A DNA stretch of 64,000 nt, taken from positions 248,001 to 312,000 of the forward strand of contig BAAIJX010000010.1 in the NCBI GenBank assembly GCA_054600435.1, read 5' to 3'. Every line of letters starts with the position of its first letter. Positions within the stretch are counted from its first letter, which is position 1. Below, in pieces: positions 4,601-25,385 of this stretch. The notes under the pieces are model-generated. The model did no database searches. It was not told the origin of the DNA and was given only the letters and a program-made list of their open reading frames with translations. The position numbers were made by a program, and so were the translations under genes. Source of the stretch: Neophaeotheca triangularis (taxonomy: Eukaryota).

Positions 4601-5517
4601 GTGGCTCCTTGGTTCCGAAGACCGACCATACCCGTCTCTTTTTTGGAGTCGTAGTTGATGAAGTTGTGCCAGAGGACACCGGTGGGATCTTTGAGCACTC
4701 TGACGTAGGCAGTCATCTTGGCGCAATCGTTCTCGACAAGTGGACGGTCGTGTTTCCCTTCGTACTTGGAAGCAAAGATTTTGGTCTTATCCGCAAACCT
4801 TGTGAAACCCCAGTCACCTTCTTCCGCTGTGAACCGGTGGTTGGCCTCATGGTGAAGGTAGATGCTAGGGTCATTCGGGTTGCTGAGCACAAGCATGAAT
4901 TGCGCGCACGCGTACCAGTCTTCGGGAGGTTTGTTGTCACCGAAGCCTTGCTCGAGATAAAAGGACACGCTTTCAGCCGCAGAGTTGCCCGCAGGAAAGA
5001 AGAGTACGCGCCACGGGTGGCCAGCGCACTCGAACTGGGGACCATGTGTCCTCTTTGGTAATTGTCGCCAGTTGTTGATGTCCCATGTGAAAACCGTCTC
5101 GGACTCCGTCTCGTGTTCTGGTAGTGGTGGCATGAATCTATTCCACATGGCGGCATGGTCATCTGCTCTTGGCTCGGCGGACTCGAAGGGTTCGGCGGTG
5201 GGTTCGGCATCATCAGCCATGCTCGCGTCGTCGTCGTTGGTGATTAGCGCTACGTTTTCGTCGTTGGGCGAGACGCGTTTCTCGTCGTAGTCCGAGTCGA
5301 GCAGCATATCGCTACCGAGCTGCGTCACACCTTGGTTAGCTTCGTTCAATGAATTGACGAAACCTGTGAATGGTGACTCGCGGCCTCGGTCGGAATCTGC
5401 GCCTGCGTTGGAAGACCAACTCGGGTTCCATTCAGAGCTTGTAGAAGAGGCAGGGGAAGAGAGGGGGTGCGATCGAGCAGTTTGCGCGGGCTCGTGGTGG
5501 CCGCTTACCTGGTCCAT
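1678..5517 (-). CDS. UBP15: Ubiquitin C-terminal hydrolase USP7/Ubp15 (MATH + USP + UBL domains); introns 5320-5508 and 1785-1883
   Basis: MATH domain (WRVLFFPAGN, DWGF), Cys box GLRNQGATCYLNSLLQ, His box LHGVLVHSGDLNAGHYY. ATG 5517 is followed by a GTAAGC donor; both introns have a GCTAAC branch point. Confidence 0.93.
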   Translation of the reverse strand: MDQVSGHHEPAQTARSHPLSSPASSTSSEWNPSWSSNAGADSDRGRESPFTGFVNSLNEANQGVTQLGSDMLLDSDYDEKRVSPNDENVALITNDDDASMADDAEPTAEPFESAEPRADDHAAMWNRFMPPLPEHETESETVFTWDINNWRQLPKRTHGPQFECAGHPWRVLFFPAGNSAAESVSFYLEQGFGDNKPPEDWYACAQFMLVLSNPNDPSIYLHHEANHRFTAEEGDWGFTRFADKTKIFASKYEGKHDRPLVENDCAKMTAYVRVLKDPTGVLWHNFINYDSKKETGMVGLRNQGATCYLNSLLQSLYLTGAFRKAVYAIPTATEEDRENSQSAYCLQRLFYRLQADNMPVSTQELTHSFGWESRQIFEQQDVQELSRILMEKLEARMKGTEAEKALPDMFVGKMKTYLKCINVDYESSRTEDFWDLQLNVSGCKSVEESFNNYIEVETLEGDNKYAAEGYGLQDAKKGVIFESFPNVLHLQLKRFEYDFQRDAMMKVNDRYEFPEVFDAAPYLDETADKSQPYIYHLHGVLVHSGDLNAGHYYAFLKPEKHGEFYRFDDDRVTKATKREAIDDNFGGDYANGANGNAKGQNPYTRQWSTKRSNNAYMLVYIRENKLDEIMPPSKDIPPPEHLPAKIAEERAAAEKRRKDREEAHLYMQVQVATEANFKAHNTTDIVPWGIEYDEEPAAPAIYRLLRSMTVSDLTKYIAQQNNQDPELLRPWIMVNRQNGTIRPDNPLIWPDLTLQEAADKFSTRNSGFRVFMEETVRNAQGEPVWPSEDISVPSSPVVNGNMPQAAKPIIIFIKHFDVDKQQLQGVGHIYMNPTDKVQDLATPILQLMGWEPGVVPQLFEEIKMTYVEAMKSKNTLAASEIQDGDIVCFQRHLSEAESTAVRQINPTSSLTAPEYYDFLQNRMFVHFTPRTKPVANAPGINDDNETFTLALSKKDSYDALCIRAAEHMTQLSGNPIDPSHLRFSTVHPQSGKPRAIVKRAANVNMASILLSSGGYSGYNYTPTQAPDQLYYEVLEMSLTDLEQRKNVKVTWLSDGITKEEPYDVLVPKQSQFHEVLAALAKKASLPEETLDQVRFYEVHGNKIYKTLPLTHAVIALNEFMTIYAEKIPDEEKDMDKENGDRLVYCMHFEKEPSKSHGVPFVFLVKAGEKFKDTKERLSKRTGLRGKQFEKIRFAIVKGGQNYSRPSWVEDNGEYYYSPASLCTFQQWFKSFKKHHTKANSTANEDEILADRMGPDDHFGLEHANKAKASWVKYESLNIR

Positions 5518-20200: not shown

Positions 20201-20394
20201 TACCATATCTAGCTTCTCGTTTCGTTTCATATAATACAACCAATGCATCTTGAGCCTCGCCAAATCAACGCTTCACTGCTACTGTCCACCATCCATCGAC
20301 TCTGACTGAACCTTTGGCCCGACCAAGATATATCTTTCCCCGCTGTAGAACCTAGACTTCGTCTCAACTTCTGCCGTCGACTCACATTCAAATC

Positions 20395-21524
20395 ATGGAC
20401 CACTCACCACACGCCCCCCGACCCAAACCTATCCCTCCACACCTAGTCAACGGTCACTCGCCTCTACATCCGCGCGCCAACGGCGCCCACTCCAAAGACG
20501 AACGTGACAGCACCTTTGCCTCGATCAAATCCAGCATGGGTCCCAAAAAGGAGCCGCTCGACCTCGAGAACCCTTCGCAGTCTCTCAACAGCCACGCGCC
20601 ATCCTCCTCGTCCTCTTCATCCCTCCCCAACGGCTCGCAACAACAAGAAAACTCCTCCCGCCAGTACGAAGAAGTCCAAGACAACGACATCAACCACATC
20701 GACCTTTCCAGCATCGACCTCAAAGTCGCCGCCCGCGATGGCCGTGACGAAGCACCCCAGACCCCTCTCGCAACCGCCCGCTCCAACTCTCCGTTCACCC
20801 AAAACCCCACCATCGACTTCGAAGGCCTGTCATGGCCCTCAGTAGGCACGCTCTCTCGGCTCCAAGAGCGCGAATCCCCCGCCGATGCGCAGGCGCGGTT
20901 GGAAAAACTCTCAGGGGCTGTGCGAACGATACTAGAGTGCATTGGCGAGGATCCAGACCGCGAAGGTTTGCACGGCACGCCGGAGCGGTACGCCAAGGCT
21001 ATGATGTTTTTCACCAAGGGCTATGAGGAGAATTTGCGCGATATTGTTAACGGGGCTGTCTTTCATGAGGATCACGATGAGTTGGTCATTGTGAGGGACA
21101 TTGAGGTTTACAGTCTTTGCGAGCATCATCTGGTGCCATTCACCGGGAAGGTAGGTTCTCCCTTGCTGAGACCCGTAGGCTGGTAAGGGCTGTGGGCGGT
21201 GTGATGCTAACTTCATCATAGATGCATATTGGCTATATCCCCTCTCGCAGAGTCATTGGTCTCTCGAAGCTCGCGCGTATTGCTGAGATGTTCAGCCGCA
21301 GACTGCAGGTGCAGGAGCGCTTGACCAAGCAGGTTGCTCTCGCGCTGTCCGATGTGCTCAAGCCGCAGGGTGTGGCGGTTGTCATGGAGAGTAGCCATAT
21401 GTGTATGGTTATGCGTGGCGTGCAGAAGGCCGGGGCGACGACTACGACAAGCTGTATGCTGGGCGCCATGAGGAAGAGGGCCAAGACAAGGGAGGAGTTC
21501 TTGAGCCTGCTCAAGGGTCGGTGA
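20395..21524 (+). CDS. FOL2: GTP cyclohydrolase I; intron 21151-21221
   Basis: [61 protein letters not shown]. Confidence 0.95.
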
Positions 21525-21990
21525 GGACAGGTTGGTCACGTGAAAGAATTGCGGGAAAGGTGGATCAGGTGACATACAGGTGAAGGCATGGTGTTTGCGG
21601 CGTTTGGCGTGACTGGTGTCGAGGTTGAGGCTGGCATTGTTGTTGCCATGGGCGGAGAATGGTGGCCAATTCAACAGGCACGGGCATGAAAATGATACCA
21701 CGACGCTCAACGCAGCGTAAGTCTTGCTTTTCTCTTGTCTTCGAAAAAGTAAGGGGCTTACTACACTCATTCAGTACAGCTCGAATTAAAACTTAGATGA
21801 CAATACTCGCTGGCGTACCAAGCACGGGAAAAGAAGGCGACCTCAGGCCAGCCCACGGAGTGCACGTCCCTATCGGTAGGAGAGAATCCCATCAGTTGCA
21901 ATGGGTCTATATATTCGTCTCGCCGCGCTAGCCTCCATAAACCAGGACGCCTCTGCCCCTGTAGCAACCTAAGTTGAACATTAACTACAG

Positions 21991-22164
21991 CGGGAGTGGA
22001 ATGCTAGTGTAGTGGTTAGGCTTAAGTTCTAACCGCTACCTAGTCAGCTTGCAATTAGCAAAGCCGGCGAAATCGCTAACCGGCCTTGGGTGTCCTTGTT
22101 TGATCGAAGGCTCTAGGTTCGACTCCTATACCAAAGTCCATTCGGATGGCGCCTCGATATTTTT
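21991..22164 (+). ncRNA. Putative Pol III-transcribed, tRNA-derived structured RNA (not a canonical cloverleaf)
   Basis: A-box-like TAGTGTAGTGG 22005-22015, B-box GGTTCGACTCC 22116-22126 in a T-arm hairpin, several further stems, and oligo-T runs from 22160. Confidence 0.55.
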
Positions 22165-22663
22165 GCCGTTTTTCACGGGTTTTCTTTTTGAGCGGCTGCA
22201 GGTGGGAGAGGTGAGGTGGATTTTTTTTACTATGTGAGTGTATTGGACATCTGGTTTTCTGTCTATCACTGGATGGTACTGACAATAGAGTGTAGCCTTG
22301 CTATTGTCGTCGCCTAGCAACCTTGGGCTTCAACGTCACCTCACGCCCCTTGAAGCTTTCAAAACTGCGCGCGCGACTTTCAACAGCAACACCCTCTCTC
22401 TCACACCCAACATTCCTCTCTCGTTCCGCATCTTCGGCACTATCTGAACATCCTCATCAGTGGCTTCTCTACGCGCTGATCATCATCATATTCAGTACCA
22501 TCAGCGCATTGCAAAGCTGCAGACCTCGCATCCTCACCACACCCGTATTCCTCACTACCAGACTTCGACGCATCGTCAGCTCAAAGACTCTGCCAGTCAG
22601 GTACATCACTTTCCTTCATACCATCTTTCACCTTCACACATCCCCCAAGGATATGGCAATCTA

Positions 22664-23827
22664 ATGGCCATCGACAGACTCTACTACTTCTGCGTGACGG
22701 TGTTCACGGTCACCTTCTGCTACACCACGCACTACCAGAACTGGGACGGTCGCAAGGAAGGCGGCACCGTCGGCAACATCTGGCGCTACAGTGAGGAGAA
22801 GAGCAAGAAGGCTGCAGAGAAAAAAAATACTGAGCACTCATCAAAGCATAGGCGTAGAAAGGAGAGGCGCTCATTCCGCCACCGTCAAGCAACCAGAGCT
22901 CGCGAACTCGACGACTTTCTGTACGCTAGAGATGGAGCAGTCGGGGAAGACTTCCTCCGCGCGCGCGACGGGTTCATCATCGGAGAATCCGCAGCAGCAG
23001 GACATGGAGATGTTGGACACGCCTCAGAGCCATTCCCAGCCTACCCACAACCCGCAGCCACCGCCTACCCTCCTTACCCAAGCTCAACCCAGTGGTATGA
23101 GCCCATCCCAAGATACACAAGCAATGAGGGCGCATCCCCCCGTTACCATCACTGGGCTAACAGTTCTGACGCAAGGTCTGGGGATCGGGCTAGGTCTGAC
23201 CATGGCCAACGCCGAACCAGCGAGCGCAGGCAGCGCAGCTCAAGGCACGGCGGAGGATCATCTTCCAGCTACAGCCCCAACAGCACCGACTGGCGTCACG
23301 GAGACACCGTCCGCTCAGACGGGTCAGTCCGCCGCGCAGGCAGTCGCACTCCATCAGCTGGCAACGCCTCCGACGACATTGAGCTCGACACATACCCACA
23401 CTCATCCTTCGAGCCAGCACGCGATAGCCGCAACCGCAACGACGCCTTCGAGCGCTCTCCTACCAGCAACCGCGCCTATGTTATACCACAACGTCGCTCA
23501 AGCTCAGGCCGCACCCAATCTAGCGTCGTCGGCCGCCCCCCTATCGGCTCCGATCGTCCCGCTTCATCCATCAACACTCAGCGCAACAGCGCTTCAGTGG
23601 CCAATGAGCGCTTCGATGAATATTACGGGCCTGCCGCCCCCCAGGAGCGCAGGGGGACGACCGATGCTATCCCCCGCGACGTTCCCGATGGACACGGTGG
23701 TGGCGGAGCAGGCGGAGATGGCCGTACAACATCGCGCCTTCATTCAGAAGAGCGTCGCCCAGGTGGCAGACAACGTAGTCGCAGCTACTCTAGCAGGCGA
23801 CGGAGCGAGTCTCACCAACGATACTGA
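22664..23827 (+). CDS. Hypothetical 387-aa protein: N-terminal hydrophobic segment plus Arg/Ser-rich disordered tail
   Basis: Long ORF with C-ending codon bias in its non-overlapped 5' part; hydrophobic LYYFCVTVFTVTFCY; overlaps the next ORF in another frame. Confidence 0.55.
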   Translation: MAIDRLYYFCVTVFTVTFCYTTHYQNWDGRKEGGTVGNIWRYSEEKSKKAAEKKNTEHSSKHRRRKERRSFRHRQATRARELDDFLYARDGAVGEDFLRARDGFIIGESAAAGHGDVGHASEPFPAYPQPAATAYPPYPSSTQWYEPIPRYTSNEGASPRYHHWANSSDARSGDRARSDHGQRRTSERRQRSSRHGGGSSSSYSPNSTDWRHGDTVRSDGSVRRAGSRTPSAGNASDDIELDTYPHSSFEPARDSRNRNDAFERSPTSNRAYVIPQRRSSSGRTQSSVVGRPPIGSDRPASSINTQRNSASVANERFDEYYGPAAPQERRGTTDAIPRDVPDGHGGGGAGGDGRTTSRLHSEERRPGGRQRSRSYSSRRRSESHQRY

Positions 23828-25385
23828 AAACGTTGCGCTGGATCCTAGCTCGGAGACGAAGCCGAAGCTTGGGGGTTTGCATAAGCGCCGCATGACAATT
23901 TCGCCAGAGAAATTCAACACTGGGCAATTCGAGCCCATGCCCATCAAAACGAACATGGACACGGCACCAATGAAGCGTGCCAAACTAACTACTTCGAATA
24001 CCGAGAAGGTGTTGGAACTGATGAACAAAAAGTCTCCATCTAGCGGCACTGGCCGGGAACCCCGTAACTACAGCTTCTCAGTTCTCACAGCTCTCTTCAA
24101 ACACCTAGAGATACTCTTACACATGGTTTCCTTTCTCAACGTACCGTCGTTGGTCTCTCTTTACTCCATCAGCAAGGCCTTCCACTACCTATTCAATTCC
24201 TGCCCCACAGCTTTCATCCTGTCTCTCAGTCGGGTCATAGCCCCTGGAGCCGAGCGCATCTTTCCGTGGTGCAACTACAAAAGCCTCTGCATCAACGACC
24301 CAAGCCTGAAGACGAAGAGCAAATACGCTGGCCTGGATAAGGTGCCCGAGCACATGTTGATCCGCGACGCACCCTCCCTACGCTGGCTACAAATGGTAGT
24401 CTGGCGCGAAGGCGTATGCAGAGACATTGTCATCCAGCTTACGCTACAAGGCCTACGAGTGCCTCATCCGTGCGTCGACGCCCTCAAGCGCATGTGGTTT
24501 CTCATGGACCTACCACTCAACTCCCACCGGATTGCGCTCTTGCGCAACAGAAACTACTTCACAAACTGCCACATCTTCCTACTCACCCTCTTCTTCCTCA
24601 AACTCGACATGGCCTTTACCTCACCCACCGCACCCCTCTACCCTCGCGGTCACAGCAACCAATTCCTCTACCCCAACCACTTAGCAGACTGCACCTTCAT
24701 CGGCGTCAACCTACGCGAAACGCTCCTGGCTGAACGCAACCTCTCGTCCCTCTGGCGGGTCCTCCACGGCTGGTCCCCAGATGCCAAATACCTCCAAACC
24801 CCCTTCTCCCGGGGTGACATCTTACGCCTGCAAGTGCGCCACCACTTCCGCTTCCCGGACGGCCTAGCCGCAGACAGCAAAGCCCGGAATCTCCCGATCC
24901 TGGGTGTCCCCGCCGAAGAAGTGGGCATGGCGGGCATGGAGCGCATCAACAAGGCACCAGGCCACACGGCGCCACAGTATCTCAACGCGCCCTTCGTCCC
25001 CGGCCCCTCGCCTTCCACCGCCTGCACCCCAACGCCGGCCGGCCGCTTCTACCCCCACGCCACCCCCGTGCACATCAACCTCCCCACCGCCCGCCCCGCT
25101 CCCCTCCCCCTCTTGCGCCCAGACCAGCTCATGATGCGCGAGGGCATCCGCCGCTGCCTGAACCTGGCGCGCAATTGGGGGAGGATGATGGCGTGGGGGT
25201 TCGTGGATAAGTTCGGCCGGCCGCTGCCGAAGTATTCGGAGAAGCAGTTGGGGAGAATTATGGCTGGGTTGCCGCCGGGGGAGGACGGTGAGGGGAGGGT
25301 CGAGGTGGTGGAGGACGAGGTCGAGTTAGTGGATCAGTATGGGGAGCCGATCATGAGCGTAGCGGAGATATTGGGGAAGGTTTAG
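22932..25385 (+). CDS. Hypothetical protein with F-box-like motif and conserved-looking C-terminal domain (true start uncertain)
   Basis: 817 codons from ATG 22932; F-box-like LFKHLEILLHMVSFLNVPSLVSLYSISKAF; globular-looking region ~24070-25260; low-complexity N-terminus. Confidence 0.65.
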   Translation: MEQSGKTSSARATGSSSENPQQQDMEMLDTPQSHSQPTHNPQPPPTLLTQAQPSGMSPSQDTQAMRAHPPVTITGLTVLTQGLGIGLGLTMANAEPASAGSAAQGTAEDHLPATAPTAPTGVTETPSAQTGQSAAQAVALHQLATPPTTLSSTHTHTHPSSQHAIAATATTPSSALLPATAPMLYHNVAQAQAAPNLASSAAPLSAPIVPLHPSTLSATALQWPMSASMNITGLPPPRSAGGRPMLSPATFPMDTVVAEQAEMAVQHRAFIQKSVAQVADNVVAATLAGDGASLTNDTENVALDPSSETKPKLGGLHKRRMTISPEKFNTGQFEPMPIKTNMDTAPMKRAKLTTSNTEKVLELMNKKSPSSGTGREPRNYSFSVLTALFKHLEILLHMVSFLNVPSLVSLYSISKAFHYLFNSCPTAFILSLSRVIAPGAERIFPWCNYKSLCINDPSLKTKSKYAGLDKVPEHMLIRDAPSLRWLQMVVWREGVCRDIVIQLTLQGLRVPHPCVDALKRMWFLMDLPLNSHRIALLRNRNYFTNCHIFLLTLFFLKLDMAFTSPTAPLYPRGHSNQFLYPNHLADCTFIGVNLRETLLAERNLSSLWRVLHGWSPDAKYLQTPFSRGDILRLQVRHHFRFPDGLAADSKARNLPILGVPAEEVGMAGMERINKAPGHTAPQYLNAPFVPGPSPSTACTPTPAGRFYPHATPVHINLPTARPAPLPLLRPDQLMMREGIRRCLNLARNWGRMMAWGFVDKFGRPLPKYSEKQLGRIMAGLPPGEDGEGRVEVVEDEVELVDQYGEPIMSVAEILGKV

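Follow-up and report, generated by a model that had tools for sequence, protein, structure and literature searches.

The window analyzed here is a 64,000-nucleotide (nt) stretch of DNA from Neophaeotheca triangularis (GenBank assembly GCA_054600435.1, contig BAAIJX010000010.1, positions 248,001 to 312,000), and all positions below are counted from its first letter. Two open reading frames (ORFs) that overlap in different frames, designated ORF A and ORF B, are located on its forward (+) strand. Together they were found to form a conserved two-ORF unit with zero spacer that encodes two separate proteins; the unit is neither one spliced gene nor a region in which both frames encode a selected protein. 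The features on which this result depends are as follows:

22664-23827, + strand: ORF A, 387 amino acids (aa), a real protein-coding ORF of an uncharacterized family
22664-22786, + strand: conserved N-terminal block of A, MAIDRLYYF...THYQNW...GNIWR
22698-25385, + strand: B frame free of stops over 895 codons (counted between its flanking stops)
22932-25385, + strand: ORF B, 817 aa, frame +1 relative to ORF A
22932-22934, + strand: B-frame ATG in the context gagATGg, with no other ATG of any frame between it and the ORF A ATG; candidate leaky-scanning start of B
22932-23824, + strand: stretch of ORF B that overlaps ORF A, open but not under selection at the amino-acid level (a shadow of A)
23825-23827, + strand: ORF A stop codon TGA; junction at which the selected frame passes from A to B
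23859-25385, + strand: conserved B body, an F-box-like family of Dothideomycetes with 38 homologues; B-frame third position fastest
23859-23891, + strand: KPKLGGLHKRR, start of the B block kept in all homologues (consensus of 20 sequences), 32 nt past the end of the A stop codon
24075-24197, + strand: F-box-like helical segment FSVLTALFKHLEILLHMVSFLNVPSLVSLYSISKAFHYLFN, best-predicted part of the AlphaFold2 model

The layout reported in an earlier note on this DNA was verified on the sequence. Both ORFs lie on one strand in a +1 relation and share 896 nt (22932-23827), ORF A starts in the context ctaATGg and ORF B in gagATGg, and a later B-frame Met is present at 23892, 65 nt past the ORF A stop.

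Conservation of the +1 arrangement

A metagenome scan returned 16 loci, two of which (L004 and L007) were cut too close to the match and were left out of the offset count. An A-like ORF followed by the B domain in the +1 frame was present at 15 of 15 judgeable loci (the window and 14 of the 16 metagenome loci). Distances from the A ATG to the LHKRR motif were 436, 490, 502, 817, 832, 844, 850, and 856 nt, with 1213 nt in the window, and all of them equal 1 modulo 3. For L006, the offset was counted from the second exon of A, as the anchor exon is followed there by a canonical intron (GTAAGT...GCTAAC...TAG). The distance from the A stop to LHKRR ranged from 46 to 178 nt across loci (52 nt in the window), A-like ORFs were 86-387 codons long, and the joint opening of the two frames, 896 nt long in the window, measured 203-1127 nt over 10 loci. 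This conserved zero-spacer +1 layout, present in many related black fungi, argues for a coupled unit.

Cryoendolithus and Rachicladosporium each carry two copies of the locus (P0023/P0026 and P0024/P0025). In both pairs, the same stretch was modelled in the A frame in one copy and in the B frame in the other.

The N-terminal block of ORF A contains seven positions that are invariant in its 21 sequences (M1, R5, L6, Y7, W27, G37, and N38), and A-like ORFs of the window and the metagenome loci begin with M-[AGT]-[IV]-[GD]-R-L-Y-Y...GN[IV]W. A hydrophobic segment was read from the sequence at approximately 22676-22735 and is a putative membrane anchor, while the tail of ORF A is disordered and basic/Ser-rich. 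The first 54-70 aa matched the N-termini of five ORF B homologues (E 3e-10 to 5e-5), and a representative search with the first 110 aa returned five more weak matches (E 3e-6 to 1.5e-4). ORF A had no family match in Pfam and no usable match in the ESM Atlas, and a single-sequence word search with it returned nothing among proteins of 212-678 aa. The protein collection contained 37 standalone A-like ORFs, 34 of which covered at least 88% of the query. The C-terminus and stop position of A were also kept within groups, as PG[ST]R[AP]FS-stop in one and PIQRWR-stop in another. Given these conserved ends and the standalone ORFs, the comparison indicates that ORF A is a complete conserved protein in its own right, coding from its start to the stop at 23825.

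Two lineages have a canonical intron just past the anchor exon of the A-like gene (L006, approximately 5286-5357, GTAAGT..GCTAAC..TAG; L009, approximately 999-1049, GTGACT..TACTAAC..CAG), which is absent from the window and the other loci. At L016, a premature TAA (996-998), 8 nt past a B-frame ATG, shortens the A-like ORF by 47 codons. Past this TAA, conservation of the A frame continues, and at the same codon the close relative L008 reads CAG; the TAA is a recent nonsense change or variant.

The 38 homologues of ORF B (E ≤ 0.001) came without exception from Dothideomycetes or metagenomes. Over its first 300 residues, the only homologue that aligned was P0002, in which the Met at 22932 is retained in the alignment; the others align from approximately residue 290-310, at the motif LG.LHKRR..SPEKFN. 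The earlier note had described ORF B as F-box-like. The resemblance of its globular part to F-box proteins is weak. The nearest ESM Atlas clusters were Ascomycota F-box proteins (score 0.96-0.97), 95% of whose members carry PF00646. Two ORF B homologues are named F-box domain-containing in UniRef. Pfam returned no family for ORF B at E ≤ 1, and its F-box models (PF00646/PF12937) matched 0 of 20 aligned B family members at E ≤ 10. The AlphaFold2 model of B was poor (mean predicted local distance difference test [pLDDT] score 54.5), with helices 80-131 at a block pLDDT of 72-76. A Foldseek search with this model gave no match at E ≤ 0.001; six of the weak matches listed were F-box proteins (E 1.4-3.7). 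A profile search of the PDB with B gave three irrelevant matches only (E 0.26-1.1). The F-box likeness of B was therefore treated as a lead, and not as membership. A complex prediction for ORF A with the B body (score 0.02, mark 0.34) weighs neither way on an interaction.

Frame under selection

In order to identify the selected frame, mismatches were tallied by codon phase in four pairs of closely related loci. Within ORF A, those at A-codon positions 1/2/3 were 25/17/50, 32/27/65, 36/24/67, and 38/35/83, so that the third position was fastest in each pair. Past the junction, the same positions gave 56/24/17, 82/26/25, 81/17/15, and 71/27/22, which places the fastest changes at the third position of B. 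This flip in phase occurred within approximately 30 nt of the A stop (30-nt bins). The count for the spacer between the A stop and LHKRR (14/23/17) was too small to read.

The window was also compared with P0002, a relative known as protein only, by assigning minimal codon changes to each replacement in the B-frame alignment. Changes at B second and first positions (B2:B1) numbered 137:91 upstream of 23898 and 58:92 downstream (ratios of 1.5 in the overlap and 0.63 downstream; Fisher exact P = 6e-5), and the second position of B is the third position of A. Among the locus pairs, this position changed as fast within the overlap as the third position of B does downstream.

The third position of A being fastest throughout, with a flip near the stop, indicates that A is coding over its full length and that the amino-acid sequence of B is selected only from about the A stop onward. 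Both ORFs are thus real coding units on one strand, as had been proposed, namely a conserved A and a conserved B body. The 896-nt overlap is not dual coding at the amino-acid level: the substitution pattern there is that of frame A alone. Purifying selection on both frames with a lowered synonymous rate was not detected in it. The approximately 300 N-terminal codons of B inside A may be translated as an unconstrained leader.

The caveat in the earlier note that B could be open as a shadow frame, A being poor in NTA/NTG codons, was well founded. Across ORF A, 1.7 stops in the +1 frame are expected by codon shuffling and 3.5 by synonymous resampling, and one was seen (P = 0.45 and 0.10, respectively), located in the hydrophobic N-terminal part. 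The A tail is poor in codons with T at the second position, and the long opening of B inside A is largely due to the lack of NTA/NTG codons. The length of the overlap by itself is not beyond chance; the conservation of the A-B arrangement is. Of the description as an overlapping or bicistronic locus, what stands is the conserved zero-spacer +1 unit and a start-codon layout that fits two proteins per transcript, whereas the overlap is mostly a by-product of A composition.

Two further candidates for B-frame signals were set aside. A GLGL motif in frame B, considered as proof of B coding, results from reading RS/GS-rich A codons in the +1 frame. A fixed B start at the B-frame ATG inside the A motif SKHATVQS was lost in L013, and the variation of the motif fits frame A.

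Routes into frame B

Frame B is open across the A stop and upstream of the downstream ATGs, so that its point of entry seems to lie inside A. The mechanism that we favor, with a probability of roughly 0.4, is the production of two proteins from one messenger RNA (mRNA) by leaky scanning. A single mRNA would carry ORF A and ORF B, and ribosomes scanning past the weak A ATG (ctaATGg) would start at the next ATG, at 22932, in frame B and in a strong context. Translation would then proceed along the low-complexity, unconstrained leader until it reached the F-box-like body. Such an overlap would demand that frame B be stop-free and that no decoy ATG come first, and nothing else.

The layout of start codons favors this mechanism. 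The first non-A-frame ATG after the A start was in frame B and unbroken into the B body in 10 of 10 loci. The null probability of this layout was 0.10-0.58 per lineage; jointly over six lineages it was 1.3e-3 (synonymous resampling) or 9e-5 (codon shuffle), or roughly 0.01 if three groups are counted, and these joint values are optimistic given that the lineages share ancestry. At no locus was there a +1 stop between the first B-frame ATG and the A stop (joint P of 0.02 or 0.003, likewise optimistic). The window has no ATG in any frame over 22667-22931, and L006 has none for 410 nt before a B-frame gcgATGg. A purine was present at -3 in nine of nine first B-frame ATGs.

Besides the shared ancestry, several observations weigh against leaky scanning. 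At the A start, position -3 is a pyrimidine in just the window and groups 2a and 2b, and a purine in L001, L002, L005, L006, and L009. L009 also has a C-frame ATG at +44, ahead of any B-frame ATG. The enrichment of B-frame ATGs reached nominal significance at no locus other than the window and L016, and the depletion of C-frame ATGs was not significant. Two proteins from one mRNA through an overlap of about 900 nt would be an uncommon arrangement for a nuclear gene of an ascomycete. In the accessible parts of the literature on dual-coding and polycistronic genes, no such ascomycete nuclear case was found, nor anything on the A/B family.

A stronger version of the proposal, put forward with somewhat more reserve, is that the locus is an old, obligately bicistronic nuclear mRNA of the Dothideomycetes. 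Production of the F-box-like protein would then depend entirely on ribosomes that bypass the A start and read the +1 frame for hundreds of codons, with selection against stops and decoy ATGs and otherwise free drift.

Two overlapping transcripts survive best among the alternatives, although we consider them unlikely. The promoter and start of B would lie inside the 3′ part of ORF A, at an ATG near the A stop (23721, 23691, or 23664 in the window); the A mRNA would end inside or after B, and the rest of the ORF B N-terminus would be an untranslated shadow. One mRNA per protein is the fungal default, and same-strand neighbors with overlapping 3′ and 5′ untranslated regions are described in the available text of a study of Zymoseptoria tritici (10.1101/2023.04.26.537486). 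Selection on the B frame begins only near the A stop, and every lineage has a B-frame ATG within approximately 175 nt upstream of that stop. Two transcripts do not predict, however, that the first non-A ATG should always be in frame B and open, or that frame B should be stop-free far upstream, and they leave the persistence of a zero spacer across lineages without a reason. The B-frame ATG nearest to the A stop, found at -174 to +106 across loci, also shifts within one group of close relatives (-146, -8, and +7).

A splicing fusion, in which the annotated intron at 23681-23747 or a cryptic or alternative one yields a membrane-anchored F-box-like protein, is improbable. It rests on the public gene models, two elements of which concern this locus:

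23681-23747, + strand: 67-nt annotated "intron" joining frame A to frame B; judged spurious
21686-21717, + strand: annotated first exon MKMIPRRSTQ; doubtful, approximately 160 nt past the GTP cyclohydrolase I ORF and joined over an approximately 930-nt intron to 22651

The best protein match of the window was P0001, a hypothetical protein of N. triangularis (899 aa, 100% identical). Its model consists of a short exon at 21686, the approximately 930-nt intron, frame A over 22651-23680, the 67-nt intron, and frame B to 25382. The frames are also joined in public models of other species (P0025, P0026, P0028, P0030, and P0011), and a retained coding intron would likewise explain an offset frozen at +1. 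The models in other genera (those five and P0017) fuse an A-like N-terminus with the B body, with the frame switch at differing points, however, which is the pattern of a predictor forced to bridge two frames. The earlier note had seen no intron signal joining A to B, and the annotated 67-nt intron agrees with this: its donor is GTTCCC, it ends in TTCAG, and it has no CTRAY branch site, in contrast to the GTAGGT..GCTAAC..TAG of a real intron in the neighboring gene. The P0002 ORF passes through this segment in frame, and removing it would cost A its own C-terminus, whose conservation together with the stop argues that A is read to its end. From these features the A-B intron was judged spurious. 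The first exon is doubtful, given that the homologues all start at the MAI(G/D)RLYY Met and none has the extension.

A 40-nt GT..AG candidate at 23809-23848 is in the right length class for a junction intron, as are those of 43-52 nt in L015 and L010. Such mini-introns were rejected as a general mechanism: their donors are poor and they are not conserved, the GT being missing from L012 and group 2b offering no valid frame (its sole good donor leads into the wrong one). Phase was kept through A and the junction in all close pairs and in L010/L014. It was lost only in some windows of the comparisons at approximately 60% identity (L001/L005 and L001/L002) and far downstream. The word RNA-seq is absent from the accessible text of the species' genome announcement. 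Whatever the mechanism, invented introns yield chimeric proteins of 640-900 aa that spread through databases.

A recoding fusion, by programmed +1 ribosomal frameshifting or polymerase slippage from frame A into frame B, was also considered and seems remote. Consecutive ORFs without a spacer in a conserved +1 relation are the signature of antizyme-type and Ty-type frameshifting, and frame B is free of stops at every point where ribosomes might shift, including at a run of eight A residues inside A (22820-22827). No shift site is conserved, however: the A stop varies among TGA, TAG, and TAA, and the codon before it among CGC, GAT, CGA, ATT, GAC, ATG, and TAC. Homopolymer runs of at least 6 nt in A are absent from nine of 10 loci, and the A8 run occurs in the window only. 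The 64-kb window contains just two other A/T runs of at least 8 nt.

Least probable is termination-reinitiation on one mRNA, in which ribosomes ending A would restart at a nearby B-frame ATG: although such an ATG lies within 10 nt of the A stop in four loci (L006, -10; L013, -8; L016, -8; L014, +7) and coupled stop-restart is described for fungal viruses and some cellular mRNAs, the nearest one is 104 nt upstream in the window and at -41, about -62, +64, and +106 in other loci, and no conserved upstream element was found. A long first ORF (here 86-387 codons) would also be expected to disfavor a restart.

The surroundings of the two ORFs were recorded as well. The neighboring genes are as follows:

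20356-21524, + strand: GTP cyclohydrolase I, upstream of ORF A on the same strand
downstream of ORF B, opposite strand: signal-peptidase subunit
downstream of ORF B, opposite strand: Rtt109-type acetyltransferase

Just 5′ of ORF A, a mini-ORF of three codons ATGGCAATCTAA (M-A-I-stop, 22653-22666) duplicates the first three codons of ORF A (ATGGCCATC), and its stop overlaps the ORF A start as TAATG. Its ATG, at -11, is the sole ATG within 300 nt 5′ of the ORF A start. A stretch at approximately 22000-22135 ends in a GGTTCGA-type motif reminiscent of the T-arm of a transfer RNA; that reading was dropped, as neither ARAGORN nor Rfam gave a match there.

Significance and comparison with known systems

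The analysis defines an uncharacterized family of small, putatively membrane-anchored proteins whose constant partner is a single F-box-like family. This partnership points to a function in common, which might, as a speculation, be to bring a ubiquitin-ligase adaptor to a membrane. If both proteins come from one mRNA, the locus would represent a rare instance, old in evolutionary terms, of ascomycete nuclear genes expressed bicistronically with an overlap. Its comparative signature (a frozen +1 offset with a stop-free and decoy-free second frame) could then be searched for elsewhere. Obligate bicistronic reading, if true, would fix the ratio of the A and B proteins and explain why A and B never separated.

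B resembles F-box proteins (PF00646/PF12937) in having an F-box-resembling helical segment near the start of its conserved body, and differs from them in the missing Pfam and significant structural matches, its own model being poor.

In antizyme-type and Ty-type +1 frameshifting, the upstream ORF ends in a stop and the downstream +1 ORF needs no start of its own. A and B share the +1 relation and its conservation across species (15 of 15 judgeable loci), and differ in that shift codon, stop identity, and context are not conserved.

Polycistronic nuclear mRNAs of green algae, for which leaky scanning has been proposed, and read-through or polycistronic transcripts of fungi are described in the available portions of PMC7896298, PMC11291117, and PMC4503453. 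The accessible text of the Z. tritici Iso-Seq study (10.1101/2023.04.26.537486) gives polycistronic reads as rare and judges them likely read-through. As is proposed for A and B, same-strand neighboring ORFs come from one transcript in these cases. Their ORFs are separated, whereas A and B overlap by hundreds of bases.

Further parallels are mammalian. GNAS XL-alpha-s/ALEX and POLG/POLGARF each have two long same-strand ORFs, of which the second begins past the first ATG and is read in the +1 frame, and a single mRNA is proposed for both proteins, as at the present locus. The overlapping part of their second protein is functional, whereas the frame B overlap is without amino-acid constraint. 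Both are presented as dual-coding mRNAs read by leaky scanning in the accessible text of PMC2329644 and PMC10742948. At the N. triangularis locus, unlike these, the functional body of B is located wholly downstream of the A stop.

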